Source: a virus (taxonomy: Duplodnaviria > Heunggongvirae > Uroviricota > Caudoviricetes > Demerecviridae). From it: a DNA stretch of 64,000 nt. Under the pieces are notes generated by a model. The model had not been told where the DNA came from, ran no database searches, and was given only the letters and a program-made list of their open reading frames with translations. The stretch lies in the IMG/VR virus record IMGVR_UViG_2757320985_000001; one strand, written 5' to 3'. The translations under genes and the position numbers were made by a program. Below, one piece after another: positions 5,382-46,892 of the stretch (position 1 is the stretch's first letter; each line of letters opens with the position of its first letter).

Positions 5382-5441
5382 TAATTTATGAACTTATTAT
5401 ACAGAATTTTAAAGCTAGAAGCAACTGAATTTTTTATTTAC

Positions 5442-17059: not shown

Positions 17060-17428
17060 TTATATCGCCTGAGTAAATGTACGACTAATAACGTCGTTCT
17101 GTTGTTCACGCGTCAATGCGTTAAATCGAACAGCATAGCCAGAGACACGGATGGTCAACTGAGGATATTTTTCAGGATGTTTCTGCGCATCCAAAAGCTG
17201 ATCACGGCTTAACACATTGACATTTAGGTGCTGACCACCCTCGACTTGGGGAACCACTTCCACATCTACAATGCGAAAGGCCTCAGGGTCAAAGTGAGGT
17301 GTGATACCTTCTAGATCTTCAACTAGAACTTTCTGTTTAAGTTCACCATCTTTAGAGTATAGTTGAATGATCTGATTGTTATGAACAATGTTAATTACGC
17401 CAGACTTAAGACTTTGATATGCTTTCAT
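17060..17428 (-). CDS. hypothetical protein, 122 aa
   Basis: ORF track. Confidence 0.5.
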
Positions 17429-17797
17429 TAGATCTCCCTGATGTTAGAATTTGGCTCAGCTTTTTGTTAACCCAGAAGCAAGATAAAAACTGGAAGGCAG
17501 GCTTGCTTATTATCTAATCACTAGCTACTGTTGGGGTGCTAGCATTCCGGTGAGATTGATGGTCTCGATTAGATAAATAAGCACTGGAACTTTGATTTTA
17601 ACGTTGCGATCTTCCAGGTCTGTTGCAACTACGTGATTGCTCACGCTAAGACAATGGCTATCTAAAGTCTTAGCTTCTACATTTATACTCCTGGATAGCA
17701 TGGAGTTGCAGTCTACTTCCTGCTGTCACGCCCGGCCATTTATAGAATGTGGACTCTCTTCTCAGCAGGATCTGGTACAATGACCTGATCCTCTGTT

Positions 17798-17873
17798 TGG
17801 TAGTTAGTAGTGGATTTGAACCACTGTAGTCGCTCCGTATGAAGGAGGTGCATAACCACTCTGCCAACTAACT
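17798..17873 (-). tRNA. tRNA anticodon CAU (Met or Ile2/lysidine type)
   Basis: Manual fold. Acceptor AGTTAGT/ACTAACT, T-arm AGTGG-TTCAAAT-CCACT, encoded CCA, anticodon loop containing CAT. Confidence 0.6.
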
Positions 17874-17879
17874 ATAATT

Positions 17880-17955
17880 TGGTACTCCGACTTGGGATCG
17901 AACCAAGATTTGACGATTATCGGTCGCCTGTTCTAACCTGTTGAACTATCAGAGC
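17880..17955 (-). tRNA. tRNA-Ile (GAU)
   Basis: Acceptor GCTCTGA/TCGGAGT, T-arm CTTGG-TTCGATC-CCAAG, anticodon loop CCGATAA, CCA encoded. Confidence 0.6.
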
Positions 17956-17956
17956 A

Positions 17957-18250
17957 TTACATCATTTCATCCAAGTAAGAAGTATACTGATATTTAGCTT
18001 CCCCAGTTTTATCTACTTCGACTTCTGTTCTAGGTACTTTTCGTACCAGACCGTGAATCATCTTGTACTGAATAGACTTAGATGGTTCGTGATCTTTTGG
18101 AAATACTTGTTTAACCGTTACTACTTTGAAGCCTTCACGAGGTGTTAGCACAACAACTTGATCACCCTCTTTGATTTTCCAAGACTCAGGAAATTCGTAA
18201 GTGTAGCGTTGACCACCCGTTTGGAATACGACAGAAAGATAACGTTTCAT
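17957..18250 (-). CDS. hypothetical protein, 97 aa
   Basis: ORF with the promoter cassette at about 18255-18310 immediately upstream. Confidence 0.5.
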   Translation of the reverse strand: MKRYLSVVFQTGGQRYTYEFPESWKIKEGDQVVVLTPREGFKVVTVKQVFPKDHEPSKSIQYKMIHGLVRKVPRTEVEVDKTGEAKYQYTSYLDEMM

Positions 18251-18254
18251 TTGG

Positions 18255-18310
18255 TTTCCCTCTCATTAATTTATATAAATATTATAACAAGAAATAAGAG
18301 AGAAGGCAAA
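18255..18310 (-). promoter_or_regulatory. early promoter cassette
   Basis: Family member immediately upstream of 17957-18250. Confidence 0.55.
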
Positions 18311-18324
18311 TGAATTTTTAAATT

Positions 18325-18399
18325 TGGTGCTCCCACCAGGAATCGAACCCGGTTCAGATGCTTACAAGGCAACTGCATCGCCAGCAATGCTTTAGGAGC
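18325..18399 (-). tRNA. tRNA-Thr (UGU)
   Basis: Acceptor GCTCCTA/TGGGAGC (one GU pair), T-arm CCGGG-TTCGATT-CCTGG, loop CTTGTAA. Confidence 0.55.
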
Positions 18400-18566
18400 A
18401 ATAAACCCGTTATTTCAACGGGATTTCTTTTTCAAATATAGGGGACTTATCAGACATTACTGTCATAGCCAACTGCTGTAGAAATTCGAATGAGAGTTTT
18501 AAACGTTCTTCTCCTAACTCAACCTCAACGCACTTCATTCGTTTATCTACTTTTAGCTTTAGATTA

Positions 18567-18788
18567 TCAGCCATCTTCGGATTCTCTTTGCTCAGCTATT
18601 GCTAGCCAGTCTGGTAAAAGAAACTTCGTACGAAATTCTTCATATGTTTCTTCTGGATGAAAGCTATAGCCTTGCTTTTCATCATTTAATAAAACCGAAC
18701 CGTCTTCCTGTTCATAAGCTCGGTATGTTTCACCAATAATTAAAACTCGTCTATTAGGATTTTTATTACGAAACTCAAAAACGTCCAT
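18567..18788 (-). CDS. hypothetical protein, 73 aa
   Basis: ORF track. Lies between tRNA genes. Confidence 0.45.
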   Translation of the reverse strand: MDVFEFRNKNPNRRVLIIGETYRAYEQEDGSVLLNDEKQGYSFHPEETYEEFRTKFLLPDWLAIAEQRESEDG

Positions 18789-18803
18789 AACGTTTCCTTA
18801 AAT

Positions 18804-18878
18804 TGGTGCGGGATACGAGAGTCGAACTCGTGTCTACTGGTTGGAAGCCAGTTATTCTAGCCACTGAACTAATCACGC
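18804..18878 (-). tRNA. tRNA-Gly (UCC)
   Basis: T-arm ACGAG-TTCGACT-CTCGT. Anticodon stem ACTGG/CCAGT with loop CTTCCAA. Confidence 0.55.
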
Positions 18879-18885
18879 ATTCGTT

Positions 18886-18961
18886 TGGCTGGAGAAGGAG
18901 GAATCGAACCTACCATTAACGGAGTCAAAGGCCGTTGTGCTAACCGTTACACTACTCTCCA
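18886..18961 (-). tRNA. tRNA-Gln (UUG)
   Basis: Acceptor TGGAGAG/TTCTCCA, discriminator G, loop CTTTGAC. Confidence 0.55.
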
Positions 18962-18967
18962 ATTGTT

Positions 18968-19043
18968 TGGCTGGGATGCCACGGATCGAACGTGGAACCT
19001 TCGGAGTCAGAGGCCGACGATCTGCCAATTGATCTACATCCCA
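18968..19043 (-). tRNA. tRNA-Gln (CUG)
   Basis: Acceptor TGGGATG/CATCCCA, discriminator G, T-arm CCACG-TTCGATC-CGTGG, loop CTCTGAC. Confidence 0.55.
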
Positions 19044-19050
19044 ATAATTT

Positions 19051-19251
19051 TTATTCTACAGGAACCGTGGCAATTGGATCTGGTTCTTCTAGACGTTTAC
19101 CATTATGATCAACACGAATAATACCACAACCTTCACAGATTACAACAGCACCATAGCCTTCTTTAACTTCGGCTTCTGTAATCAGACCAGAAAGATCACC
19201 AGTATCTTTGCCCCACATATCGATAGAGCATTCTTTGCAGAAATCAGCCAT
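19051..19251 (-). CDS. Zn-ribbon small protein, 66 aa
   Basis: CKEC ... CEGC paired cysteines. Confidence 0.45.
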   Translation of the reverse strand: MADFCKECSIDMWGKDTGDLSGLITEAEVKEGYGAVVICEGCGIIRVDHNGKRLEEPDPIATVPVE

Positions 19252-19275
19252 ATTTTAGTTCCTGTATAAGTTAAT

Positions 19276-19350
19276 TGGTGCATCCTCAGGGAATCGAACC
19301 CCGATCGTAAAGTTCGTAGCTTTACATTCTTTCCGTTGAAATAAGGACGC
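19276..19350 (-). tRNA. tRNA-Arg (ACG)
   Basis: Acceptor GCGTCCT/AGGATGC, T-arm CGGGG-TTCGATT-CCCTG, anticodon stem TAAAG/CTTTA with loop CTACGAA. Confidence 0.5.
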
Positions 19351-19356
19351 AATATT

Positions 19357-19433
19357 TGGGGTGGCTAGTGGAATTCGAATCCACATAGGCCTGATTCACA
19401 ATCAGGATCATTAACCAATTATGATATAGCCAC
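19357..19433 (-). tRNA. tRNA-His (GUG)
   Basis: Perfect acceptor GTGGCTA/TAGCCAC with discriminator C. T-arm GTGGA-TTCGAAT-TCCAC, loop TTGTGAA. Confidence 0.6.
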
Positions 19434-19744
19434 AATTGAAAACTCGCAGGGTTAGCGAAACCATCCTCAAATAGCATTTTCTAGAATACTAATCAAGTTA
19501 TCTCCTATTGCACGAAGCTCAAGACGAGTACGAATTTTCAATTGTGGTGGCTCTCCGAAACTCTTCCCACTTACAACTAGTTGATTACTCCTAGATTGTC
19601 GCCCAGGAAATTCTCTAGAAAGGAGCACCGTTACTCTTTGAGCCATTGATGATGGGATGGTCTCTCATCCCCACTAACTACTTAATCCTTACGATTCGTC
19701 GGTTAGCACGAGCAGCGACCCTTCATATATAATTTATAGTGCTC

Positions 19745-19900
19745 AGAAGGTCATTAGAAGCACTTATCAAGAAGCAGAAGGACTCGAACCTTCAAGAGAT
19801 AGACCATTTATCTCAGCCTCGTTTTCGGGTATCTTATGAGGAGTGGATGTTCCCCTTACGCCCTTTAGGAAGCCCCGTCTACCGATTCCGGCATACTTCA
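19745..19900 (-). pseudogene. tRNA-like remnant (intact T-arm GAAGG-TTCGAGT-CCTTC, identical to the tRNA-Pro T-arm; no pairing acceptor 5' strand)
   Basis: T-arm seen at 19780-19796. Upstream RNA contains a CTCATAA-like loop but no acceptor partner for TGCTTCT. Confidence 0.3.
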
Positions 19901-19904
19901 AGAA

Positions 19905-20111
19905 TTATTTAAAACTTGTAACCTTCGGGAACCTTATCCTTAACACCAATATACTCAGCTTGGATGTAGTATGTTGCACATGATCTTTAGGTAGATCTTT
20001 ATTTACATCATTAACTTCCATCAAGGCTTCGGCCTCGGTGTCAAATGGACGATACCAGCTTTCACCACCCCAGCCACGTTCGCTTTCGGTATACTTAACA
20101 ATGTGTTTCAT
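19905..20111 (-). CDS. hypothetical protein (internal start MKHIVKY chosen)
   Basis: The ORF-track ORF 19905-20162 would overlap the tRNA at 20130-20219. The ATG at 20111 has an AAGGA RBS. Confidence 0.45.
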   Translation of the reverse strand: MKHIVKYTESERGWGGESWYRPFDTEAEALMEVNDVNKDLPKDHVQHTTSKLSILVLRIRFPKVTSFK

Positions 20112-20129
20112 AAGGTTTTCCTTATTAGT

Positions 20130-20219
20130 TGGAGGAAGGTAATGGAGTCGAACCATCACCATATCGCTACAGCGGGCAGGTTTTCAAGACCTGTTACATA
20201 CCACTATGTCCTACCTTCC
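20130..20219 (-). tRNA. tRNA-Ser (UGA), class II
   Basis: 90 nt. Acceptor GGAAGGT/ACCTTCC. Anticodon stem CAGGT/ACCTG with loop CTTGAAA. Long variable arm. Confidence 0.6.
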
Positions 20220-20226
20220 AGTTGTT

Positions 20227-20318
20227 TGGCGGAAGAAGAGAGATTCGAACTCTCAAGCCTGCTTTAACAAGTCAGCCACTTTCCAAGCGGTTTTCGTCAC
20301 CTATCGATTTGCTCTTCC
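20227..20318 (-). tRNA. tRNA-Ser (GGA), class II
   Basis: 92 nt. Acceptor GGAAGAG/TTCTTCC, T-arm GAGAG-TTCGAAT-CTCTC, loop TTGGAAA. Long variable arm. Confidence 0.5.
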
Positions 20319-20492
20319 GTAGATCTCAGGATTAAATCATAAATTTCATTAGCGGATACTGGAAGTATGAGATTATACATCTTTTGGTCATACCTCTGAC
20401 CATACTCTATAAACACATACTCTTTAGTTAATGTATTAACAGCTAACCAGATATCAGTTATAGGAGTTTTCATCATGAGTTAATTCAATGTT

Positions 20493-20573
20493 TGGTAGGG
20501 ATGGAGGGACTCGAACCCACACCCGAAGACTAGAACCTAAATCTAGCGCGTCTGCCAATTTCGCCACATCCCC
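20493..20573 (-). tRNA. tRNA with anticodon UAG (Leu-type anticodon), 81 nt with a 9-nt variable region
   Basis: Acceptor GGGGATG/CATCCCT. Anticodon stem CTAGA/TCTAG with loop TTTAGGT. Confidence 0.5.
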
Positions 20574-20580
20574 ATTTTAT

Positions 20581-20799
20581 TTAGTTAGAAATAAATAGTA
20601 ACCCTGCAACAACGGAACCTATACCACTGAATACCATTATCAGCATAGCTTCTAAGCTGATAAAGCGGACGGTATATGGCGCGCCCCAAGAATAATCAGT
20701 AAAGAAAGTTTTCTTTTCTTTAGCTAAATCTTTAATAGTTCTAAAGTAGATAGCTAGTGCTAAAGCTGCAAGAACTACAGAGGCTGCTAAGAATACCAT
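20581..20799 (-). CDS. small membrane protein, 72 aa
   Basis: Two hydrophobic helices. Confidence 0.5.
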   Translation of the reverse strand: MVFLAASVVLAALALAIYFRTIKDLAKEKKTFFTDYSWGAPYTVRFISLEAMLIMVFSGIGSVVAGLLFISN

Positions 20800-20818
20800 A
20801 TTATTTCCTTAATTTGTT

Positions 20819-20894
20819 TGGTGGAGTCACTCAGAATTGAACTGAGTTCCACTGCTTGCAAGGCAGTAAGTTTAACCAAATAACCTATGACCCC
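20819..20894 (-). tRNA. tRNA-Ala (UGC)
   Basis: Acceptor GGGGTCA/TGACTCC carries the G3:U70 Ala identity pair. Anticodon stem ACTGC/GCAGT with loop CTTGCAA. Confidence 0.6.
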
Positions 20895-20899
20895 GAATT

Positions 20900-20978
20900 T
20901 GGTGGAGAATAAGAGATTCGAACTCTTCTGATATCCTCGGTGCAAGCGAGGTGTCCACTCCAAGCAGACCCATTCCCC
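20900..20978 (-). tRNA. tRNA, 79 nt, anticodon loop CTTGCAC (UGC), also with G3:U70
   Basis: Acceptor GGGGAAT/ATTCTCC, T-arm AAGAG-TTCGAAT-CTCTT, anticodon stem CCTCG/CGAGG. Looks like a second Ala-type tRNA. D-arm unclear. Confidence 0.4.
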
Positions 20979-21184
20979 AAAATCTTTAAGTTTACTAAGG
21001 CTATTAGCTCGGTGTGCGTATTACCCTCAGACATTAGCCAGTAGAGGATAACCGCTCTTCACAAACCCGATACACTATTCAGTTGCCGCTGAATCTAGTG
21101 GACTAGTCTAGAACTTCTCCCGAGTCGTAGGGATCGTGCTTTTTGGCAGCCAGTCCTGGGTCGAGCTAATACCTTAGTGAACTT

Positions 21185-21245
21185 TGATGAGGATTTCTCC
21201 TCATCAATTTATATAAATATTATAACAAGAAATTAAGCATCAAGC
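21185..21245 (-). promoter_or_regulatory. early promoter cassette driving a non-coding leader and a tRNA sub-operon
   Basis: Family member. No ORF downstream, only non-coding RNA and the tRNAs at 20819-20978. Confidence 0.5.
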
Positions 21246-21599
21246 AAGTACATTTTTAGCGATTTCTTGTATTTCCTTAACGTCACTAACGAAAAGGTAA
21301 TCAGAGCTTCCAGAGTGCATACTCTGCATAACCACACCATCCTCTGGTGCATCTTCTTTCAGTGTGATACCTAACCAGAACTCGGCAAAACTAGGTGTTA
21401 CCTCACCTTGACTTGCCTTGAATACATCGGCTTCTGTAATCTCTTGACCAGTGGAGAGTCCCATGTATGGTACGTTCAGATCAATATCTTTGTAGAATTC
21501 AGCTAGATCTTGTTCGAAGTCCCAACCTTTAGAGATAGCGAACTCCATTGTTACATGACCGAAATAGCCTTGAACCTTGCTTGATAATTGCATTTGCAA
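21240..21599 (-). CDS. hypothetical protein, 119 aa
   Basis: ORF track. Confidence 0.5.
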   Translation of the reverse strand: MQMQLSSKVQGYFGHVTMEFAISKGWDFEQDLAEFYKDIDLNVPYMGLSTGQEITEADVFKASQGEVTPSFAEFWLGITLKEDAPEDGVVMQSMHSGSSDYLFVSDVKEIQEIAKNVLA

Positions 21600-21618
21600 T
21601 TCCTTATTTTGAGTTAAT

Positions 21619-21692
21619 TGGTACTCGGTGATAGAATCGAACTATCGCAACCGCCGTGTAAAGACGGGGTTCTCCCATTAAACTAACCGAGC
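21619..21692 (-). tRNA. tRNA-Val (UAC)
   Basis: Acceptor GCTCGGT/ACCGAGT, T-arm GATAG-TTCGATT-CTATC, loop TTTACAC. Confidence 0.55.
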
Positions 21693-21825
21693 AAAAGACG
21701 TCCTATAATATAGGCTTCAACTACAAATTCACAGAAACCTGCTAAAAACATACCTATTGTAAAATCGGCAGAGAATACATAGGAATCTTTTATTTTCTGC
21801 TTCATTAAGTAAAACCAGATAGTCA

Positions 21826-22143
21826 TTAAAATCTCTCCATTCTAAAGCCAATGAAGTAAGGTGCATTACATGGAACATGCTTAAGATCTTTAAGAGTAAT
21901 TTTACGTCCTAAGCGTCGTTCCATACAAGTGAAACATAGAACAATATCTTTGGGCTGCTCTTTTCTTATCTGATCCCAGACCCAATCTTCAACCATACAC
22001 ATTTCATGGTATTGTTCACAGTCTCGACAATAATGACACTGATGTTCTGGTACTTTTTGATTTTTAATACACAGTTCAGTAAAGCGTTTTCCGGCTCTGC
22101 CAGACATTTCTGATATTGTTTCTAGAACTTTGTTAATATTCAT
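21826..22143 (-). CDS. Cys-rich hypothetical protein, 105 aa
   Basis: HQCHYCRDCEQYHEMC ... CFTC motifs (Zn-binding-like). Confidence 0.5.
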   Translation of the reverse strand: MNINKVLETISEMSGRAGKRFTELCIKNQKVPEHQCHYCRDCEQYHEMCMVEDWVWDQIRKEQPKDIVLCFTCMERRLGRKITLKDLKHVPCNAPYFIGFRMERF

Positions 22144-22160
22144 AACAAATTCCTTTAAAT

Positions 22161-22239
22161 TGGTAGACCGCCTGGGACTCGAACCCAGAACCTTCCGGTT
22201 AAAAGCCGGGTGCTGCTAAACCAATTGAGCTAGCGATCT
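22161..22239 (-). tRNA. tRNA-Lys (UUU)
   Basis: T-arm CTGGG-TTCGAGT-CCCAG. Anticodon loop CTTTTAA, identical to enterobacterial tRNA-Lys. Confidence 0.55.
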
Positions 22240-22427
22240 ATTTAATACATGTATACTTCTTTAATAGAGTAAACTTTTAAGTAAGGATGATTAATACCAA
22301 ATTCCGCCATCACTTCGTTTTCATCTTTACCGTAATGGGCTAGTGGATACTTCTTACGATCTTTGCTAGATCGCAGGTCACTTACTTTTAAACGAAATAA
22401 TTTCATTTCGAAATCCTTCTATTAAAT

Positions 22428-22504
22428 TGGAAGCGGGTGCAGGAATCGAACCTACCTCTTTCTAGCTTATGAGACTAGCGATCTCTGCCAGAGATCTAAC
22501 CCGC
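22428..22504 (-). tRNA. tRNA anticodon CAU (Met; 1:72 mismatch, possibly initiator-like)
   Basis: T-arm GTAGG-TTCGATT-CCTGC. Anticodon stem CTAGT/GCTAG with loop CTCATAA. Acceptor GCGGGT/ACCCGC. Confidence 0.45.
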
Positions 22505-22511
22505 AATTGTT

Positions 22512-22588
22512 TGGTCTCCAATGAAGGACTCGAACCTTCAACCCCACCGCCCCAAACGGTGTACTCTAGCCAATTGAGCTAATCGGAG
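22512..22588 (-). tRNA. tRNA-Pro (UGG)
   Basis: Acceptor CTCCGAT/ATTGGAG, T-arm GAAGG-TTCGAGT-CCTTC, anticodon stem CACCG/CGGTG with loop TTTGGGG. Confidence 0.55.
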
Positions 22589-23119
22589 AATATTATCTTT
22601 TTAACCATAGTAAGGATAGACCTAACATGGTGAACCCAGTACCCAGCCCAATACTTTTCTCTATGAAATTGAAGGTATCAGTATTGACTGCTGTAATTAG
22701 TATAGGTATAGACCATACTACCATAAATACTTGAGCTATCTTATATTTCATTTTGCTTTCCTTCTCAACACTTTATAAGATATATTATACAGAGAATTAA
22801 GCGAAATAGCAAATGAGTTTTTAATAAATTTACTTATTGCGTAGGCCACCTCACGCTTCAAACGCTCTGCTGACAAAGAAGTTTGCGAGACTTCTCTTAA
22901 ATGCCAGAATAGACCCGCCGATCTATCGGAACCTACTCAATAAGTAAACTTTCGTTTACTTACACTCCTGCGTTTCCATTGGGCCTCCAAAGAGGTATCC
23001 ACGACCTGTTATTCAGAAGATTTTACCACGTTGAACGGCCGGAACTCCGTGGCTTGTTTACTATCACCTTACGGACGCATAAGTTATTACACGAATGCGC
23101 AGGCTTGGTTTGATAGATT

Positions 23120-23195
23120 TGGTGCGGTCGGAGGGACTCGAACCCTCAACTTCTGGTTGGCAACCAAAAATTATACCTTTTAACTACGAACGCAT
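23120..23195 (-). tRNA. tRNA-Gly (GCC)
   Basis: T-arm GAGGG-TTCGAGT-CCCTC. Acceptor GCGTTCG/CGACCGC (one mismatch). Loop TTGCCAA. Confidence 0.45.
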
Positions 23196-23199
23196 AATA

Positions 23200-23331
23200 A
23201 GTCAATCTAGGCAGGACTTGAACCTGCTATCACTTGTGCGGATTTACGAGAACCATTCTTTCACTCGAATCGAACGAGCTTCTACCCTCGGCAAGCTGGT
23301 GTCCCCTCTCCACCACGCTAGAATGTTTAAT
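23200..23331 (-). pseudogene. tRNA-like remnant(s) with two T-arm-like hairpins (CTCG-TTCGATT-CGAG and GCAGG-TTCAAGT-CCTGC) and no complete cloverleaf
   Basis: Manual fold failed to find acceptor partners. Confidence 0.3.
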
Positions 23332-23409
23332 TGGTACACCTGCTGAGATTCAAACTCAGGATCTTCCGATTAAGAGTCGGTTGCTTTAAATCAACTAAGC
23401 TACAGATGC
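23332..23409 (-). tRNA. tRNA-Lys (CUU)
   Basis: Acceptor GCATCTG/CAGGTGT, T-arm CTGAG-TTTGAAT-CTCAG, loop CTCTTAA. Confidence 0.5.
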
Positions 23410-23949
23410 ATTTATATCTTTATAGGACTTACCAGTCAGTCTTGTATAGCGTTTTCGCAGACCATTATCTGACATGCCCAATTCTCTAGAAGCTCTAGAC
23501 CATGAGTAATTTTTAACCCAGTACTCTATTTGTTCTACAGTAATTTCTTGTGGATTTTGACAGTGCTGTTTGCAGTAACTAGCTCTTTTAGCTATTTCTT
23601 TGTTGCAAATAGGACAGAAATTTTTATCTGAACTTAATCCACGTTCTTCTATAGTTTTGAGAATATGATCAGCTTTACTTCGTACAATCAGATTTTCAAG
23701 AGAGAAATTTAGTTTGTTTGTATCATCATGATCTACTTCTAAGTCAGAACTCAAAGATGGTAGATCTTTGTATACTCTCGCTAATACTCTGTGTAATAGA
23801 AGATGTTTTGATTTTCCATTATGTTGAACAGTAAAGAAAGGATACCCAGAAGTATTAATCTGTATTGAAAGTATACGATTAACTTTAGTACTAAATACTT
23901 CCCCAGTCTCACTTATTAAGTATTCTGGATATTCGGGTATTTCTTTCAT
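23395..23949 (-). CDS. HNH-family homing endonuclease (HNH_3 core with C-terminal HTH)
   Basis: GYPFFTVQHNGKSKHLLLHRVLARVY core. C-terminal WVKNYSWSRASRELGMSDNGLRKRY helix-turn-helix. Embedded in the tRNA array. Confidence 0.7.
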   Translation of the reverse strand: MKEIPEYPEYLISETGEVFSTKVNRILSIQINTSGYPFFTVQHNGKSKHLLLHRVLARVYKDLPSLSSDLEVDHDDTNKLNFSLENLIVRSKADHILKTIEERGLSSDKNFCPICNKEIAKRASYCKQHCQNPQEITVEQIEYWVKNYSWSRASRELGMSDNGLRKRYTRLTGKSYKDINASVA

Positions 23950-23966
23950 TACTGTTCCTTATAATT

Positions 23967-24043
23967 TGGCGCGACCGATGGGATTCGAACCCACATTCTC
24001 TCCCGTGACAGGGGAGTACCATTACCAAGCCAGCCCCGATCGC
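23967..24043 (-). tRNA. tRNA-Asp (GUC)
   Basis: Acceptor GCGATCG/CGGTCGC, T-arm GTGGG-TTCGAAT-CCCAT, anticodon stem CTCCC/GGGAG with loop CTGTCAC. Confidence 0.6.
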
Positions 24044-24052
24044 ATAATTTAT

Positions 24053-24238
24053 TTACTCAGCTTTGAGTTTTTCGATAGCTTCCTCAACCTCTTTTAGAGC
24101 TTCACGATAACGATTCAAGTTATGTAGTTCTTCCAGAAGATCAGCCTTCTGAGTTTCTACCCAACGTTCACGAACCTTAATGTTGTTTTTAATATTATCA
24201 CGATCAGCTTCTAGTCGAGCAATTGCATGAGTTGTCAC
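24053..24238 (-). CDS. coiled-coil small protein, 61 aa
   Basis: ORF track. Confidence 0.4.
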   Translation of the reverse strand: MTTHAIARLEADRDNIKNNIKVRERWVETQKADLLEELHNLNRYREALKEVEEAIEKLKAE

Positions 24239-24265
24239 ATCTATTTCCTCAGTTATTAATGAAAT

Positions 24266-24348
24266 TGGCGGGCCGTGTAGGATTCGAACCTACGTTGTCT
24301 TTCAACATGGATTAACAGTCCACCGCCAAACCGCTTGGCTAACGACCC
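24266..24348 (-). tRNA. tRNA, 83 nt, anticodon loop CTGTTAA (GUU, Asn-type) but with a 13-14-nt extra arm
   Basis: Acceptor GGGTCGT/ACGGCCC, T-arm GTAGG-TTCGAAT-CCTAC, anticodon stem GTGGA/TCCAT. Variable hairpin GTTG-AAAGA-CAAC. Confidence 0.5.
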
Positions 24349-24355
24349 TAAAATT

Positions 24356-24431
24356 TGGACGACCGCATGAGATTCGAACTCACATAAGGAGGTTTTGCAG
24401 GCCTCCGCCTAAGCCATTCAGCCAACGGTCG
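24356..24431 (-). tRNA. tRNA-Cys (GCA)
   Basis: Acceptor CGACCGT/GCGGTCG, discriminator U. Loop CTGCAAA. Confidence 0.55.
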
Positions 24432-24609
24432 ATTTATCTTGTTTTTCGAGATCAACGAACTCTAAATCGTTGAAGTCTCCTAGAGTACGGGAGTAATAAC
24501 CGTCTCCAGCATCATAGCCTGATTTACCACACTTACACATCTTAAACTCACGTAGACGTGTAAAGATATGTTCAGAACCACAACACTTAAATTTAACTAA
24601 CTTTTTCAT
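24418..24609 (-). CDS. Zn-ribbon small protein, 63 aa
   Basis: KCCGSEH ... CKCGK cysteines. 3' end overlaps the tRNA-Cys 5' region by a few nt. Confidence 0.4.
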   Translation of the reverse strand: MKKLVKFKCCGSEHIFTRLREFKMCKCGKSGYDAGDGYYSRTLGDFNDLEFVDLEKQDKSTVG

Positions 24610-24848
24610 TTAACACGCTCCGGTAAATCTTCTAGTTTATATTGAGTAGCCACATTAGCAGCATCTAATAATAAACCCATGTGTTTAAGAATCCTAGTGA
24701 TAGCCTCGCCTTCTGCTTCTTCTACAAAGCAACGTAGATTAACGAAGTCAATACCACCATCCATACCAGAGAAAATGTTTAGTAAGCGAAGCATTACCAG
24801 CTTACGTTCTTTCAATTCTTGTTCTGTCATGTTGCTTCTCCAGTTCAA
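24606..24848 (-). CDS. hypothetical protein, 80 aa
   Basis: ORF downstream of the promoter cassette at about 24845-24900. Confidence 0.5.
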   Translation of the reverse strand: MNWRSNMTEQELKERKLVMLRLLNIFSGMDGGIDFVNLRCFVEEAEGEAITRILKHMGLLLDAANVATQYKLEDLPERVK

Positions 24849-24880
24849 TTTATGTAATAATTATACAGAACTTTAAGCGG

Positions 24881-25168
24881 TTAAGCAACTACATTTTTCA
24901 GAAATATGATGCCTTTCTTTTTCTTCTTATATTTCCACGTTAACGGGTTCTGTCGATTATGAACGCTTGAGATCTTTGTCTCGTCAAAGTTCTTCAATAC
25001 CATGTAATCACAGGCCAACTGTTCTAGTGGGATGTGATCTCCGTCAAAAGCATAAACATAAGGCTGTTGACTAGCACGATAATGATAGACTTTGTTAATT
25101 CTGCGTTTCAGTGACTTATCCGCACAGTAAATAAAGAAGTTTTCAGGATGCATCAGCATCTCCTTCAA
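24881..25168 (-). CDS. hypothetical protein, 95 aa
   Basis: ORF track. Confidence 0.45.
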   Translation of the reverse strand: MKEMLMHPENFFIYCADKSLKRRINKVYHYRASQQPYVYAFDGDHIPLEQLACDYMVLKNFDETKISSVHNRQNPLTWKYKKKKKGIIFLKNVVA

Positions 25169-25170
25169 AT

Positions 25171-25245
25171 TGGTGCACCCCGTTGGTAACGATCCAACCT
25201 CTCAAGCTCTTCAGGCAAGCGCTAATCCATCTCAGCTAAAGGTGC
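25171..25245 (-). tRNA. tRNA-like gene with a non-canonical T-loop (ATCGTTA) and an irregular anticodon arm
   Basis: Acceptor GCACCTT/GGGGTGC, discriminator A, CCA encoded, D-stem GCTG/TAGC. The anticodon stem only forms 4 bp, with loop GCCTGAA. Confidence 0.35.
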
Positions 25246-25251
25246 AAATAT

Positions 25252-25327
25252 TGGCAAACCTACTAGGACTCGAACCTAGACCGTACGGTTTTGGAGACCG
25301 ACATGCTGTCCAGTAACACTCTAGGAA
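25252..25327 (-). tRNA. tRNA-Trp (CCA), acceptor stem imperfect
   Basis: T-arm CTAGG-TTCGAGT-CCTAG. Anticodon loop CTCCAAA, identical to E. coli tRNA-Trp. Discriminator G. The acceptor 5' strand could not be paired cleanly. Confidence 0.4.
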
Positions 25328-25336
25328 TGCAGAAAT

Positions 25337-25413
25337 TGGCGTCCTGTGCGGGGATCGAACCCGCAAATCCTACCTTGAAAGGGTAGTGACTTTACCAGTT
25401 TGTCTAACAGGAC
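25337..25413 (-). tRNA. tRNA-Glu (UUC)
   Basis: Perfect acceptor GTCCTGT/ACAGGAC, T-arm GCGGG-TTCGATC-CCCGC, anticodon stem CTACC/GGTAG with loop CTTTCAA. Confidence 0.65.
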
Positions 25414-25423
25414 TTAAATTTGA

Positions 25424-25511
25424 TGTTGGATGATGGAGTCGAACCACCCGAGACCCTTCCGAGTCGGCAGATTTACAGTCTGCTTCGCTACCTCTACGAT
25501 ACTAATCCAAC
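25424..25511 (-). tRNA. tRNA-Tyr (GUA), class II
   Basis: 88 nt. Perfect acceptor GTTGGAT/ATCCAAC. Anticodon stem GCAGA/TCTGC with loop CTGTAAA. Long variable arm. CCA not encoded. Confidence 0.6.
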
Positions 25512-25637
25512 ATATTTGAATGAAAAGTAAGTCGGTTAAACTCAAGGTGGAATATTTCAGGAAATCCTGACTTTACCCCTAAAAGCAACTCGCTTAGTTA
25601 CTTCTCATTCAGATATGTTTTCCAAATTAGATAACTA

Positions 25638-25675
25638 TTATATCAAGTTTTGCAGGACTGAGCAAGTCAAATTTT
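25638..25675 (-). promoter_or_regulatory. candidate tRNA-operon promoter (TTGCTC-17-TATAAT)
   Basis: Minus-strand reading: GACTTGCTCagtcctgcaaaacttgaTATAAT, upstream of tRNA-Tyr/Glu/Trp. Confidence 0.4.
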
Positions 25676-25701
25676 AAAGAACTTGCTCAGTGCTATATCA
25701 G

Positions 25702-25977
25702 TTACTCGAAGCTAGGAGTGACACTCAGTTTGAATGGAAGCTCGAACACTTCTTCATAATCATCATTGAGCGTAATTACACGACCTTCTAGCTTAGTCAT
25801 GGTGATTTCGATATCAGCCTTTGCATCAGGAGCCATACCAGCTTCCACACATTTAGCTTTAACTTCCGGCAGAAGTTCTACATCGTAGAAATAAAGCCAT
25901 TCAATCTCACCTTCCCAGCCACCCCAGGATTTACAAACAGCACTTTCAACACCAGTTGCAGTAACACGTTTTGACAT
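25702..25977 (-). CDS. hypothetical protein, 91 aa
   Basis: ORF downstream of the promoter cassette at about 25980-26040. Confidence 0.5.
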   Translation of the reverse strand: MSKRVTATGVESAVCKSWGGWEGEIEWLYFYDVELLPEVKAKCVEAGMAPDAKADIEITMTKLEGRVITLNDDYEEVFELPFKLSVTPSFE

Positions 25978-26067
25978 TCGTTAACTCCTTCATCAATTTA
26001 TATAACTATTATAGCAGAAATCTTAAGTAAAAAGCAAGTACATTTTTAAAATTTCTGCTTGGAGGAG

Positions 26068-26274
26068 TTAAACTCCTGATTCTTCTGCCAGATCAAGCCC
26101 AACCAATGTGATTGCCATAATAGCCGCGCCATGTTCTTTCTCTCCTAGCTCTTTGGCTTGAGTGAGAATATTTAGGAACTGCTTTTGAAAATCTGCAACT
26201 TCTTCTGTCATGCCTGCTTCAGCAATAATTCCTTTCAGCATAAAGCGTTGTGCCGTAATTTCAGGATTAGCCAT
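26068..26274 (-). CDS. hypothetical protein, 68 aa
   Basis: ORF track. Confidence 0.45.
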   Translation of the reverse strand: MANPEITAQRFMLKGIIAEAGMTEEVADFQKQFLNILTQAKELGEKEHGAAIMAITLVGLDLAEESGV

Positions 26275-26425
26275 TTATTATCTCCAGTTATTTAGAATGT
26301 AAGCCAAACTTAGGATCATAGCGATCGTAAGTCGTACCATTAGTTGAAGCCTTGATGTTATGAAAACGACAGTACATAAATTTACGTAGTGCTTTCTTAA
26401 TAGCTTTCATTTTATTTCCTTAATT

Positions 26426-26502
26426 TGGTAGGGGTGGTGGGATTCGAACCCACAAAACCTGAATTTTAAGTCCAGTACCTATGCCAATTCGATTACACCC
26501 CC
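26426..26502 (-). tRNA. tRNA, 77 nt, anticodon UAA (Leu-type) but class-I architecture
   Basis: Acceptor GGGGGTG/CACCCCT, discriminator A, T-arm GTGGG-TTCGAAT-CCCAC. Anticodon stem CTGGA/TTCAG with loop CTTAAAA. 5-nt variable loop. Confidence 0.5.
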
Positions 26503-26594
26503 ATGTAATCAGTTTATCAGTTGATATAAGTTGTAGCCCAGCGAAAATCCTACTACTAGCCCTACAAACCAACCAATATAATAATCTTTTAGTT

Positions 26595-26942
26595 TCATAG
26601 TTCATAACCCTGAATGTATCGAGCAAAACCAGTAATTTCAAACTGAATTGCCCAAACTACTTCCATATGTTCAATCTTCTCAAACCGAGCATCAGATTGC
26701 TCTAGGAAATAACGAGAGATTGTAGGAAATTCAATGTCGAAATCTTCCTTATCCATGCCATAGTAGAACTTTTCAGGAATATTACGAACTTCACGGAAGA
26801 AATCCTCGATCTGAAAATCCATTAGAGGATGTGTAACTTCCTCTTTGCTATCATCCGTCTGGAAGAAGCGGAAATGCACAAGGCAAGAGCCAATCAGGTT
26901 TATTGCTGGTGTAGTATAGATATCCATCTTAGCCTCGCTCAA
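26595..26942 (-). CDS. hypothetical protein, 115 aa
   Basis: ORF track. Confidence 0.5.
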   Translation of the reverse strand: MSEAKMDIYTTPAINLIGSCLVHFRFFQTDDSKEEVTHPLMDFQIEDFFREVRNIPEKFYYGMDKEDFDIEFPTISRYFLEQSDARFEKIEHMEVVWAIQFEITGFARYIQGYEL

Positions 26943-27114
26943 TATCTAGAGAAATACCACATTTAGGATTAATACCAGAACCATTACAATGTGTACAAAC
27001 GTATGTATTATACCATGTATCCCCGGGTTCAGCATCGTTCCATTCACCTGCTCCAAAGCATTTTGGACAGGCACACTCTTCTAGTTCCTGCTTCATTTCA
27101 TAGAATCTAGACAT
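26929..27114 (-). CDS. Zn-ribbon small protein, 61 aa
   Basis: CPKC ... CTHC motifs. Confidence 0.45.
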   Translation of the reverse strand: MSRFYEMKQELEECACPKCFGAGEWNDAEPGDTWYNTYVCTHCNGSGINPKCGISLDIERG

Positions 27115-27131
27115 ATAGTATCCTAGTTAAT

Positions 27132-27209
27132 TGGTGGCTCCCGGAGGATTCGAACCTACCTACCTTTCGCTTATGAGGCGACGGCTCATACCAAATGAGC
27201 TTGAGAACC
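27132..27209 (-). tRNA. tRNA anticodon CAU (third CAU tRNA; Met or Ile2)
   Basis: Acceptor GGTTCTC/GGGAGCC, T-arm GTAGG-TTCGAAT-CCTCC, loop CTCATAA. Confidence 0.5.
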
Positions 27210-27214
27210 AAATT

Positions 27215-27308
27215 TGGAGGAAGATGCCAGATTCGAACTGGCACACCGTGTCTCCACAGCTACTGGCTGTTTAGCAAACAGCTCCCTTACCTTTAGGGTT
27301 AATCTTCC
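27215..27308 (-). tRNA. tRNA-Ser (GCU), class II
   Basis: 94 nt. Perfect acceptor GGAAGAT/ATCTTCC, T-arm GCCAG-TTCGAAT-CTGGC, anticodon stem GCTGT/ACAGC with loop TTGCTAA. Long variable arm. Confidence 0.65.
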
Positions 27309-27359
27309 GAATTTATGAATATATTATACAGAAAATTTCGGCATTAAGCAAGTGAAATT

Positions 27360-27674
27360 TTACTGAACATTGCACTGATATACTTGTTTGATACGTGTCA
27401 CTGACTTCTTAGTTGGGTTGATAGAAGAACCCTGCCACCAACGTGATTCTGAGCTGAGAACAGCCCCAGGAACAGCTTGTTCTTTTGGCAGAACAATATC
27501 AAAACACTGTTCACCCATATTATCTTTAATGTGCGACCAAATGTCTAGAGTAAATCGTTCTAGCTTATTACAAACTTGAACTTGACAAAGTTCCTGTTGT
27601 GGAGCAGCAAATACAGAAGTAGATACTAGAGTCAATGCAAGTACAATGCGTTTCATGTTTGATTCCTCTCTCAA
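27360..27674 (-). CDS. secreted hypothetical protein, 104 aa
   Basis: Signal peptide (LALTLVSTSVFAAP) and 4 Cys. Promoter cassette lies upstream at about 27660-27725. Confidence 0.5.
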   Translation of the reverse strand: MREESNMKRIVLALTLVSTSVFAAPQQELCQVQVCNKLERFTLDIWSHIKDNMGEQCFDIVLPKEQAVPGAVLSSESRWWQGSSINPTKKSVTRIKQVYQCNVQ

Positions 27675-27725
27675 ATTTATAAATATATTATACAGAAATT
27701 TTCTATATAAAGCAAGTGAAAATTT
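27666..27725 (-). promoter_or_regulatory. early promoter cassette
   Basis: TTGCTT at 27710-27715 (RC), TGTATAAT at 27687-27694 (RC), GAGAGG leader. Confidence 0.6.
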
Positions 27726-32702: not shown

Positions 32703-32777
32703 TGGCCGAGGTGACAGGATTCGAACCTGCATAAAGGAATTTAGAAGACTCCTGCCTATCCCTTAGACTACACCCCG
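32703..32777 (-). tRNA. tRNA-Arg (UCU)
   Basis: Acceptor CGGGGTG/CACCTCG, T-arm GCAGG-TTCGAAT-CCTGT, anticodon stem GGAGT/ATTCC with loop CTTCTAA. Confidence 0.55.
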
Positions 32778-33299
32778 TTTAGGTATTTTTAAGAACTCTT
32801 ATAAAAGCTCTTAAAGATACCCGACGGTAGGTAGGATCAGCCCCCTCAGATTAAGCTCTGCAGCCCTTCCGTCAGACAATATCTTCCAGTTTAAGTCAGG
32901 GTGACTTTGTGGTTATGTTCTCCGTATGTGAAGAACTCGGTTAGGCTTAGGTCATGACTCCCAGCCTACTGCTGCCGCTCAACAGGAATTATCGCGAATT
33001 ACCTGTACTATTGGGCACCATTAGTGACATCTCTCATGTCAGCGTTTCCCACTCTCATATTCACGCGGTCTGTTAGAATCGCACCTCCGATTTTCGATGC
33101 GAAGCTGTATGCCTAGTCTCAGGTTAAACGGGGCACACACTAGGCAGTGATCCCGAGTTCCGAGTTTGGTTGAGGCCGTCAGGTTTCCTCGTGGTTTAGC
33201 TGTTTCGATTCTAACCTAATACTGATCAGGTGGCGTACCTCCTGAACCGTCATAGTATGTACTCCAGCAGCGAATGCTTATCCGGTATAAGCCCGAGTT

Positions 33300-33395
33300 A
33301 TCTGATTCTTTCCGACCGCAGGATTCGAACCTGCATCTTCCACCAGTTACGGTTTGATATTACCGTTTATACTAGGACGGCAGTGTTATCACATA
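33300..33395 (-). pseudogene. tRNA-like remnant (T-arm GCAGG-TTCGAAT-CCTGC, 8-nt anticodon-like loop)
   Basis: Lies in an 840-nt non-coding stretch. Acceptor stem does not pair. Confidence 0.3.
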
Positions 33396-33675
33396 AGTCA
33401 GTTCGACACCCCACTAACATAAACTAGAGAAGAGTTTACGAGATTTCGGGACAGCTCCCGAGTTTTCCGCAGATTTTCAGTTCCCTATCAATAGCAATAA
33501 GCGTTAGCTCGTAGCCTCTCTCTCAGAGTACTTACTAGTCTCCAACTCACCGACTCTATTCAGTGGAATAGCTATCCTAGTAGGAATCACTAAACTCACT
33601 CAGCGTAATCGGCTCGCTGTTCTCTAATTTATGAATCTATTATACAGAATTTTGAGGCGTTTAGCAAATCAATTT

Positions 33676-46715: not shown

Positions 46716-46892
46716 AGCCTATGATATTGCATTTAAATAAAAAATTTGCTTGCTTTTATTGGGAGATGTATGGTACTAGATAATCATTTTATATCGCGTA
46801 CACGGGTGCGTGATTATACTATTTTTAGTAGAGGTTGGCAAATAAAATTTTTTGACTCAGATCATGTTACAGAACTTTATAGTAAAATATTG

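Follow-up and report, generated by a model that had tools for sequence, protein, structure and literature searches.

Long-arm tRNA-Asn and arm-less tRNA-Leu genes in the tRNA array of a T5-like Salmonella phage and in other phage arrays

The well-annotated tRNA region of phage T5 (NC_005859) is the closest described counterpart of the locus studied here, a tRNA array at positions 17798–27308 of a viral DNA of 64,000 nucleotides (nt) (IMG/VR record IMGVR_UViG_2757320985_000001; the whole stretch is called the window below). Four genes of this array have unusual shapes: a tRNA-Asn with a long variable arm, a tRNA-Leu(UAA) that lacks one, a tRNA-Leu(UAG) in which it is shortened, and a tRNA-Phe with an altered T-loop. 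The stretch 17600–27500 has 100% identity to the sequence of Salmonella phage 100268_sal2 (NC_031902; Demerecviridae, Markadamsvirinae, Epseptimavirus), and hundreds of T5-like phages are 82–96% similar to it over most of its length. Because the region matches a known phage, and because the T5 tRNA region has homologs of much of the array and of several of its non-coding RNAs, the array as such is, judged by homology, a known and publicly annotated feature of the T5-like phage family. The arrays of T5 and 100268_sal2 share their genome position, strand, promoter type and interspersed small open reading frames (ORFs) and HNH genes; their Met, fMet and Thr genes agree at 76/76, 77/78 and 72/75 positions, and homologs of the T5 RNAs RNAIII, RNA1, RNA2H, RNAIV, RNA2 and RNAX are present in 100268_sal2. 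They differ in that T5 has a class I tRNA-Asn of 78 nt and unrelated sequence, plus a tRNA-like RNA3, and in that neither ARAGORN nor the annotation gives a Leu(UAA) gene in the T5 tRNA region examined. Furthermore, Leu(UAG) is 85 nt in T5 and 81 nt here, the T-loop of T5 tRNA-Phe is canonical (U54–A58), and Arg-ACG, Gly-GCC, Lys-CUU and a second Ala are extra genes of 100268_sal2.

By the textbook rule, a long variable arm is restricted in bacteria to Leu, Ser and Tyr tRNAs (class II); the nev-tRNAs of nematodes take Leu. Several described tRNAs resemble the odd genes of this array in part. Bacterial class II tRNA-Tyr has the same arm build as the long-arm Asn (about 1 nt, a 3-base-pair (bp) stem, a loop of 3–4 nt and a 3-nt spacer) and shares G34 and U35 with it, but the long-arm Asn has the anticodon GUU and not GUA, G73 in 90% of cases and never A73, and in many cases U1–A72. 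The nev-tRNAs (Hamashima et al., cited in PMC5389517) and the allo-tRNAs likewise combine a long arm with a class I anticodon. Allo-tRNAs occur in bacteria and phages, some of them in phage tRNA clusters, and have 8/4 or 9/3 acceptor branches and a predicted or demonstrated identity of Ser or Ala (PMC5389517); in these described groups either the acceptor branch is unusual or the arm sets the amino acid, whereas the long-arm phage tRNAs described here have a normal 7/5 acceptor branch and a discriminator that follows the anticodon. Arm-less tRNA-Leu is known from animal mitochondria and from minimal E. coli tRNA-Leu variants, which LeuRS charges via A73 and the D/T-loop core (PMC9976931). The phage Leu genes differ from these in being natural genes with a normal-size cloverleaf, in hosts whose own Leu tRNAs are all long-armed.

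A third group of relatives is defined by function. The PARIS nuclease AriB cuts tRNA between positions 40 and 41, and its neutralisation requires T5 tRNA-Lys(UUU), Thr(UGU) and Asn(GUU); an AlphaFold 3 model sets its second subunit against the D-loop (PMC12409363). Phage tRNAs also evade retron effectors (PMC12409363, PMC11555353). In these studies the phage tRNAs act as resistant replacements rather than as demonstrated decoys. The present array belongs to the same phage family and carries the same isotypes, and its Lys and Thr genes are substituted at and around position 39, the region of published resistance mutations. Published escape consists of point changes in the anticodon stem and D-loop, whereas the Asn gene here combines a host-like site with a whole extra arm. 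Phage Bas34 of the PARIS study was considered as a possible report on a long-arm Asn and set aside: Bas34 is SelmaRatti, and its Asn gene is 77 nt long and class I, so that the study has no bearing on the long-arm form. Our literature search, which left most subscription journals and the older T5/BF23 work outside its range, returned no description of a long-arm tRNA-Asn or of frequent arm-less tRNA-Leu in bacterial phages. Hence what appears to be new is the wider distribution of the two shapes and not the array itself, and an earlier description is possible.

Four atypical tRNA genes

The earlier note on this DNA, based on manual folding, had singled out four tRNA genes as odd. ARAGORN drew three of the four as described there, and all four genes are confirmed at their positions; their oddities are not artefacts of manual folding. 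Each scores above the Rfam gathering threshold for tRNA, 29 bits:

20493–20573, minus strand: tRNA-Leu(UAG) with a shortened 9-nt variable arm (ARAGORN; Rfam 53.5 bits)
24266–24348, minus strand: tRNA-Asn(GUU) with a class II-like variable arm (ARAGORN; Rfam 59 bits; five-arm minimum-free-energy fold)
25171–25245, minus strand: tRNA-Phe(GAA) (Rfam 33.4 bits at 25174–25245; missed by ARAGORN)
26426–26502, minus strand: tRNA-Leu(UAA) with class I shape (ARAGORN; Rfam 57.4 bits)

Copies at least 99% identical to the odd genes are present in 67 to 293 phage records, including 293 for Leu(UAA) and 140 for Leu(UAG); for Asn, copies at least 95% identical are present in 264.

The 83-nt Asn gene has the anticodon loop CUGUUAA and a 13-nt extra arm, as the note had described. 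The arm consists of a 3-bp stem (GUU/GAC), a GAAA tetraloop and a 3-nt spacer (AAC) and thus exceeds the length of about 10 nt, with a stem-loop, that marks class II. The acceptor stem pairs GGGUCGU with ACGGCCC, beginning with G1–C72, and is followed by discriminator G73 and an encoded CCA; the minimum-free-energy fold is a five-arm cloverleaf. By ARAGORN this is the sole Asn tRNA in the 64-kb window. Full-length copies about 77% identical are found in T4-like phages of Klebsiella and Enterobacter, for example JD18, and a related 86-nt copy in phAPEC8. When the anticodon is masked, the nearest-neighbour isotype is clear for Asn and Leu(UAG) and ambiguous for Leu(UAA); the body of the Asn gene has its nearest neighbours among Asn tRNAs of both the long and the short form.

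The Leu anticodon UAA at 26426–26502 does sit in a class I shape: the variable loop of this 77-nt gene is GUUUU, 5 nt long. The 81-nt gene with anticodon UAG at 20493–20573 does have a variable region of only 9 nt (UCUUCGGGU), in which at most 2 bp close a UUCG loop as a C-UUCG-G mini-hairpin. Neither has the class II arm expected of bacterial tRNA-Leu. The D-loops of both are of the Leu type (GAAUUGGCAUA in Leu(UAA), AAAUUGGCAGA in Leu(UAG)), and A14/A15, G18G19, A20a, U48 and A73 are all present; Leu(UAA) has G1–U72. E. coli LeuRS recognises A73, A15–U48, G18G19 and A20a, and substrates without the long arm are active (PMC9976931), so both genes hold the LeuRS identity set. Relatives of Leu(UAG) are 83–87 nt long, and arm length therefore varies within one lineage.

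For 25171–25245, the sequence bears out both the non-canonical T-loop AUCGUUA and the irregular anticodon arm, which has two U-U mismatches in its stem. The gene is a tRNA-Phe with anticodon GAA, a 4-nt variable loop (AGAG), A73 and CCA, and the identical sequence is annotated tRNA-Phe in phage EscoHU1. Over nucleotides 1–50, the mismatched anticodon stem included, the gene does not differ from T5 tRNA-Phe, whose recognition by E. coli PheRS is Mg-dependent (PMC9976931). Only the T-arm differs from T5, by one stem pair (C-G to G-C) and the loop (UUCAAUU to AUCGUUA), giving A54 and U58 in place of the canonical pair and keeping U55 and C56. In a comparison of related Phe genes of six phages (T5 and Acinetobacter, Stenotrophomonas, Salmonella and E. 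coli phages), three have U/A at positions 54/58 and three have A/U, with no mixed case; Acinetobacter phage Mithridates and Escherichia phage VivaForever share the A54/U58 swap. The anticodon stem also changes in a compensatory manner across phages, from G30–C40 to C30–G40 and from U-U to A-U or U-A. Because the changes at 54/58 and in the stem are compensatory, we regard this gene as a tRNA that folds under constraint and in which the reverse-Hoogsteen pair is swapped, not as a wreck.

The note had offered suppressor-like and mis-charged tRNAs among the possible explanations. A suppressor role is excluded by the anticodons: none of the 29 genes drawn by ARAGORN (28 in the array and an outlying Arg-UCU) has CUA, UUA or UCA, the Phe anticodon is GAA, and the anticodons UAA and UAG read Leu codons. 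Mis-charging is unlikely. The E. coli AsnRS identity set is the anticodon GUU together with G73 (PMC9976931), and G34, U35, U36 and G73 can all be read in the Asn gene. The chief determinants of Ser identity are a long variable arm and G73, the anticodon being ignored by SerRS (PMC9976931, PMC5389517); the Asn gene does have G73, but its 3-bp arm stem and 3-nt spacer are Tyr-like and not Ser-like. The Tyr set (A73, U35, GUA) is broken by its discriminator G, and the A73 of Tyr and Leu is thus absent. Since each of the four odd tRNAs keeps the determinants that its cognate synthetase reads, cognate charging is the likeliest outcome for all of them.

Long-arm tRNA-Asn and short tRNA-Leu in viral arrays

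IMG/VR viral contigs were scanned for CUGUUAA followed, 17–30 nt on, by GGTTCGAATCC, which gave at least 120 loci. ARAGORN called at least 117 Asn(GUU) tRNAs of 80–94 nt in the contigs listed, about 104 of them unique. The discriminator of the 103 unique sequences that could be parsed is G73 in 93 and U73 in 10, with no A73; pair 1–72 is U1–A72 in 61 and G1–C72 in 40, the 7-bp acceptor stem is fully paired in 92, and the variable region spans 11–22 nt. A covariance-model search of the loci matched every tRNA (437 matches) and its alignment was too mixed to use, and the evidence on the arm is drawn from a curated 16-sequence alignment and from folding each arm separately. The mean folding energy of the arms is −2.73 kcal/mol, against −0.65 ± 0.09 for shuffles, and a hairpin of at least 3 bp forms in 82% of arms against 31% of shuffles. 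The stems are of 54 distinct kinds, and GNRA accounts for 55 of 90 loops, 39 of these GAAA. In the 16-sequence alignment all 4 pairs of the arm helix change on both sides with 98% of cells paired, values that none of 500 shuffles reached. That a covarying hairpin with a GNRA cap persists in sequences so divergent indicates that the arm is itself under selection.

When class I spacing was allowed as well, the scan gave at least 110 class I and at least 10 long-arm loci, so that about 8% of the matches listed are long-arm; this fraction refers to viral contigs with an Asn tRNA of the scanned T-loop type. The corresponding scan of cellular genomes, with one genome per bacterial or archaeal species, gave 13 long Asn calls among the 120 matches listed. 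Seven of the 13 lie in loci with 6–23 tRNAs in at most 8 kb, as in phage arrays, and three are single archaeal genes in which, ARAGORN having been run without introns, the extra sequence is probably an intron. Among the matches listed, the long-arm Asn thus appears diverse in viral contigs and rare in the cellular genomes sampled.

The arm of the long-arm Asn resembles that of Tyr in the same viral loci in shape and not in discriminator, as the geometries show:

Ser: modal stem 5 bp, 1 unpaired nt before the T-stem, mostly G73
Leu: modal stem 2–4 bp, 2 unpaired nt before the T-stem, A73
Tyr: modal stem 3 bp, 3 unpaired nt before the T-stem, A73 (42/42)
Long-arm Asn: stem 3–4 bp with a tetraloop, 3–4 unpaired nt before the T-stem, G73

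Arms of the same build (3–4 bp, a tetraloop, a 3–4-nt spacer) are also carried by phage Cys, Met, Thr, Ile, Asp and Lys tRNAs (viral loci L003–L122 and L243–L352). The discriminators of these long-arm class I tRNAs follow the anticodon (Cys U73 12/12, Asp G73 5/5, Ile A73 9/9, Met A73 8/8, Lys A73 6/6), and we infer from this that the arm is an extra feature with no effect on amino-acid identity. Of the arrays with a long-arm Asn, 43 of 98 also hold a long-arm tRNA of another class I isotype, compared with 6 of 46 arrays whose only Asn is short (odds ratio 5.2, p = 0.0003). About 100 other T5-like phages have a long-arm Thr(UGU) of 87 nt (for example at 4406–4492 of contig L016, Salmonella phage SP01) in place of the 75-nt class I gene found in T5 and 100268_sal2. 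In T5-like phages, long-arm versions were found for two isotypes, Asn(GUU) and Thr(UGU); both are AriB targets, which may be a coincidence.

Short Leu tRNAs are common in the same material. The variable region is at most 8 nt in 63 of the 146 unique Leu tRNAs of the sampled viral loci, with A73 in 63/63 and U48 in 59/63; such arm-less Leu genes occur in about half of the sampled phage tRNA arrays that have a Leu tRNA, and only in loci with at least 5–6 tRNA genes. The two shapes are not associated within sampled arrays (26/49 against 16/31). Judged from these sequences, the odd shapes of Asn and Leu are recurrent architectures of phage tRNA arrays.

The array, its promoters and its neighbours

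Within 17798–27308, ARAGORN finds 28 tRNA genes, all on the minus strand, and Rfam RF00005 adds 25174–25245 (33.4 bits), giving 29. The array claimed in the earlier note is therefore real, and its ends coincide exactly with the first and last ARAGORN coordinates; the count of about 31 given there is too high. Of the two Arg genes listed there the range holds only one, Arg(ACG), and a second Ala(UGC)-like gene was overlooked. Under laxer Rfam filters all 29 genes match a model of the tRNA clan (RF00005, or RF01852 for Ser-UGA and Ser-GGA), every one above 29 bits except Ser-GGA (26.5 bits), and none of the loci fails all tRNA models. ARAGORN draws a cloverleaf for every array tRNA but Phe, and a 3′ CCA is encoded in every gene but Tyr. 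Together with the outlying Arg(UCU), the 29 genes cover all 20 amino acids. The RefSeq record of 100268_sal2 lists just 20 tRNAs here, overlooking 9 of the 29, and marks two, Tyr and Ser(UGA), as pseudogenes; the earlier hand-made list is thus fuller than the public annotation. The remaining genes, all on the minus strand and called by ARAGORN, are:

17798–17873, minus: tRNA-Met(CAU), elongator type (Rfam 51.5 bits; the gene identical to annotated T5 tRNA-Met)
17880–17955, minus: tRNA-Ile(GAU) (57 bits)
18325–18399, minus: tRNA-Thr(UGU), class I (47.4 bits; absent from RefSeq annotation)
18804–18878, minus: tRNA-Gly(UCC) (65.5 bits)
18886–18961, minus: tRNA-Gln(UUG) (50 bits)
18968–19043, minus: tRNA-Gln(CUG) (56.4 bits)
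19276–19350, minus: tRNA-Arg(ACG) (53.4 bits)
19357–19433, minus: tRNA-His(GUG) (59.9 bits; absent from RefSeq annotation)
20130–20219, minus: tRNA-Ser(UGA), class II (tRNA model 29.1 bits, tRNA-Sec model 40.5 bits)
20227–20318, minus: tRNA-Ser(GGA), class II (tRNA-Sec model only; absent from RefSeq annotation)
20819–20894, minus: tRNA-Ala(UGC), G3–U70 (59.6 bits)
20900–20978, minus: second Ala(UGC)-like tRNA, 79 nt (38.1 bits at 20903–20978, lax filters only)
21619–21692, minus: tRNA-Val(UAC) (57.8 bits)
22161–22239, minus: tRNA-Lys(UUU) (54.3 bits)
22428–22505, minus: tRNA(CAU), initiator type (41.2 bits; counterpart of the T5 gene annotated tRNA-fMet)
22512–22588, minus: tRNA-Pro(UGG) (55.4 bits)
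23120–23193, minus: tRNA-Gly(GCC) (60.6 bits)
23332–23409, minus: tRNA-Lys(CUU) (61.2 bits; 5′ end overlaps the stop of an HNH endonuclease ORF)
23967–24043, minus: tRNA-Asp(GUC) (46.8 bits; absent from RefSeq annotation)
24356–24431, minus: tRNA-Cys(GCA) (40.7 bits)
25252–25328, minus: tRNA-Trp(CCA) (36.3 bits; absent from RefSeq annotation)
25337–25413, minus: tRNA-Glu(UUC) (61.1 bits)
25422–25512, minus: tRNA-Tyr(GUA), class II (32.6 bits; aligned with T5 tRNA-Tyr; RefSeq pseudogene)
27132–27209, minus: tRNA(CAU), Ile2 type (40 bits; 86% identical to T5 tRNA-Ile2(CAU))
27215–27308, minus: tRNA-Ser(GCU), class II (48.4 bits; absent from RefSeq annotation)
32703–32777, minus: tRNA-Arg(UCU), outlying member of the set (49.3 bits)

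By homology, tRNA(CAU) at 27132–27209 would read AUA after lysidine modification. The second Ala-like gene, directly upstream of the canonical tRNA-Ala and unseen by RefSeq and by the default Rfam filters, has G3–U70, A73 and CCA, an irregular D-arm and a 7-nt variable loop; copies 96% and 82% identical to it occur in contigs L059 and L003, which also carry a T5-like long-arm Asn. The tRNA-Tyr gene is the sole one to end in A-UCA instead of A-CCA and would require 3′ trimming and CCA addition to function; its acceptor stem is wholly unlike that of T5 tRNA-Tyr. Host tRNA-Tyr is degraded by the retron Eco7 defence, hence the interest of a phage tRNA-Tyr (PMC12673091). The tRNA-Trp gene is strongly unlike T5 tRNA-Trp and has U-U mismatches at acceptor pairs 2–71 and 3–70.

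The T5-type early promoter motif (TTGCY, 18–19 nt, TATAAT) has 30 matches in the window where 0.38 are expected. Seven lie in or at the head of the array, all in the orientation of the tRNAs, and resemble in form and placement the promoters annotated in T5:

18281–18309, minus: T5-type early promoter (motif scan, as for all seven)
21219–21247, minus: T5-type early promoter
22784–22812, minus: T5-type early promoter
24860–24888, minus: T5-type early promoter
25637–25665, minus: T5-type early promoter
26008–26037, minus: T5-type early promoter
27323–27351, minus: T5-type early promoter, upstream of the first tRNA pair (Ser-GCU, Ile2)

Further sites include 5396–5424, 27687–27715 and 55710–55738. 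Across the window, the 24 matches up to position 46841 lie on the minus strand, whereas the 6 from 48867 onward lie on the plus strand, which marks a change in the direction of transcription. A generic sigma-70 promoter scan was not enriched (19 found, 24 expected).

The non-coding gaps between the tRNAs hold, on the minus strand, homologs of T5 stable RNAs with 80–97% identity, which the T5 annotation calls "stable RNA with unknown functions" and some of which are tRNA-like. The RNAs assigned by homology, and the one ORF of the array with a recognisable domain, are:

19435–19540, minus: T5 RNAIII homolog
19765–19902, minus: T5 RNA1 homolog
21059–21171, minus: T5 RNA2H homolog
22838–22936, minus: T5 RNAIV homolog
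23201–23325, minus: T5 RNA2 homolog
32778–33436, minus: T5 RNAX homolog
23395–23949, minus: HNH/NUMOD4 homing endonuclease ORF (Pfam NUMOD4 27.1 bits, HNH_3 24.9 bits; annotated HNH endonuclease)

The RNA2 homolog contains two T-arm-like hairpins. The small ORFs interspersed among the tRNAs have no Pfam matches. The HNH/NUMOD4 ORF terminates 15 nt within the 5′ end of tRNA-Lys(CUU), and T5 HNH genes overlap tRNA genes likewise; this overlap, together with the mosaic gene content relative to T5, suggests that tRNA genes may be exchanged as cassettes. Two tRNA-like matches lie outside the array, Arg(UCU) and a marginal one at 33310–33381 (29.3 bits) that sits within the RNAX homolog. Adjoining this RNAX/Arg-tRNA block, the ORF at 33676–34119 (minus), annotated "tRNA amidotransferase", has only a sub-threshold YqeY-like match (24.9 bits, cut-off 27) and may encode a small tRNA-binding protein. 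Immediately downstream of the array, the 122-residue ORF at 17060–17428 (minus) matches Pfam Gly_radical with 66.3 bits and looks like a stand-alone glycyl-radical protein.

The codons CUA, UUA, AGA, AUA and GGA are rare in enteric hosts. In the phage, CUA and UUA make up 16% and 19% of Leu codons, AGA 15% of Arg, AUA 10% of Ile and GGA 22% of Gly, and the array holds exactly the tRNAs that read them. Codon use and the matching tRNAs are consistent with a supply role.

Possible reasons for the odd shapes

We think it probable, with room for doubt, that the array is an early-expressed T5-like tRNA cluster whose odd genes are working isoacceptors with shapes kept to evade host nucleases. Strong T5-type promoters would transcribe the tRNAs together with the small ORFs, and host enzymes would presumably process them. 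The set would sustain phage translation when host tRNAs are scarce for the codons that the phage prefers or are destroyed by defence nucleases. The four odd genes would be charged and used in translation, and would be neither suppressors nor mis-chargers nor wrecks, as their deviations appear to sit where the cognate synthetase does not read and the identity nucleotides are kept. Asn would have gained a short GNRA-capped arm, Leu(UAA) lost its long arm and Leu(UAG) trimmed its own, and Phe would have swapped T54–A58 for A54–U58, with a loose anticodon stem. A tRNA surface so altered from the host shape may be less well recognised by host tRNA nucleases and toxins, with aminoacylation uncompromised.

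A link of the odd tRNAs to host anticodon nucleases, which the earlier note had also raised, is reasonable by analogy with the published cases. At the AriB site (positions 36–41), Lys(UUU) reads UAACCG where E. coli has UAAUCA (PMC12409363), and Thr(UGU), which reads UAAGCA, is likewise changed at position 39. The Asn extra arm emerges between the anticodon stem and the D-arm core and might sterically shield the tRNA from AriB. Escape from host tRNA nucleases is a plausible reason for arm remodelling.

Several observations weigh against this account. The Asn gene keeps UAAUCC, the site of the AriB-sensitive E. coli tRNA-Asn (PMC12409363), so that any AriB escape of this tRNA would have to come from the arm, and UC at positions 39–40 is no more or less frequent in long Asn (52/103) than in short Asn in arrays (36/82) or other short Asn (23/55). 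T5 uses an ordinary class I Asn, and the long arm is therefore not required for the T5 lifestyle. Since the long arm and G73 belong to the Ser identity set, some Ser charging of the Asn tRNA is possible. The single-sequence minimum-free-energy folds of both Leu genes are not cloverleaves, and the support for their cloverleaf therefore comes from the covariance scores (57.4 and 53.5 bits) and ARAGORN. Finally, all frequencies given above refer to the matches listed from biased samples and are tied to one T-loop motif.

A wider form of the evasion account, which we hold to be possible but doubtful, is that phages systematically remodel variable arms as a shape-level disguise against host tRNA-targeting nucleases and toxins, with synthetase identity intact. 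GNRA-capped arms would then be added to class I tRNAs, chiefly Asn and also Thr, Cys, Met, Ile, Asp and Lys, and deleted from Leu.

We consider it unlikely, if still worth weighing, that the genes are functional and their shapes of no benefit, drift having been tolerated because synthetases do not read the arm. Under this explanation the long-arm Asn would derive from a class II tRNA-Tyr (GUA to GUU, A73 to G), and Leu would have lost an arm that it did not need. Within the same loci, long-arm Asn and Tyr share an arm geometry of a 3-bp stem, a tetraloop and a 3′ spacer of 3 nt, which fits such an origin. In phAPEC8 the Asn gene immediately follows the Tyr gene, with 77% identity between the two. 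Tyr is also the commonest nearest neighbour of the long-arm Asn within its locus, with 17 cases against 12 each for Ser and short Asn, a distribution that is not decisive for a Tyr origin. Drift is further suggested by the variable-arm length of the Leu(UAG) lineage, which ranges from 81 to 87 nt, and by the fact that T5 and 100268_sal2 differ in which shape each carries. Several features speak against this explanation. U1–A72, found in 61 of the 103 long-arm Asn, is the usual pair of bacterial tRNA-Asn and differs from that of E. coli tRNA-Tyr; the anticodon-masked body of the gene is closest to Asn tRNAs; and long arms occur on Thr, Met, Ile and Lys as well, whose anticodons are at least two changes from GUA. 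The maintenance of the covarying hairpin over very divergent sequences and the clustering of long-arm class I isotypes in the same arrays also argue against shapes without benefit.

The note had further suggested decoys for host anticodon nucleases. In this reading the odd tRNAs would not decode and would instead bind and sequester such nucleases, or other host defence proteins that bind tRNA. The authors of the PARIS study raise competitive inhibition of AriB by overexpressed viral tRNAs (PMC12409363), and the host-like UAAUCC site of the Asn gene would suit a decoy. We nevertheless hold this to be improbable. Asn accounts for 5.1% of phage codons and the window has no other Asn tRNA; the conservation of acceptor stem, discriminator, encoded CCA, T-arm and anticodon loop is that of a working tRNA; and a decoy would need neither G73 nor a perfect 7/5 acceptor branch.

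Very improbable, in our view, is deliberate mis-translation, in which the long arm would recruit SerRS (or TyrRS or LeuRS) and AAC and AAU would be read as another amino acid, as with nev-tRNAs or allo-tRNAs. The two Ser identity elements and the indifference of SerRS to the anticodon speak for it. The Asn arm, however, has 3–4 bp and a 3′ spacer of 3–4 nt, against 5-bp stems and 1-nt spacers in the Ser tRNAs of these loci; A73, which Tyr and Leu require, is found in 0/103 long-arm Asn; in every long-arm class I isotype the discriminator goes with the anticodon and not with the arm; and misreading 5% of all codons would be highly damaging. That the odd genes are decaying pseudogenes of a mosaic region is the least credible reading of all: RefSeq flags Tyr and Ser(UGA) and omits nine genes, Rfam scores are low for Phe, Trp and Tyr (33–36 bits) and Tyr lacks an encoded CCA, but the odd genes are preserved nearly unchanged in the many phage records given above and the changes between lineages are compensatory.

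A phage tRNA-Asn with a long arm and a phage tRNA-Leu without one break the textbook class rule for bacteria, and they are not isolated oddities. tRNA-cleaving immunity (PARIS, retrons, PrrC, and the Cas13 and Cas12a3 effectors) is now central to phage–host biology, and natural arm variants therefore offer a direct way to ask which features of tRNA shape nucleases read; for engineering, the odd tRNAs are candidate nuclease-resistant or orthogonal tRNAs. If phages do use arm remodelling as a disguise, the class I/class II rule would be broken on purpose in the virosphere, and the arm status of a phage tRNA would mark past conflicts with tRNA-directed immunity.

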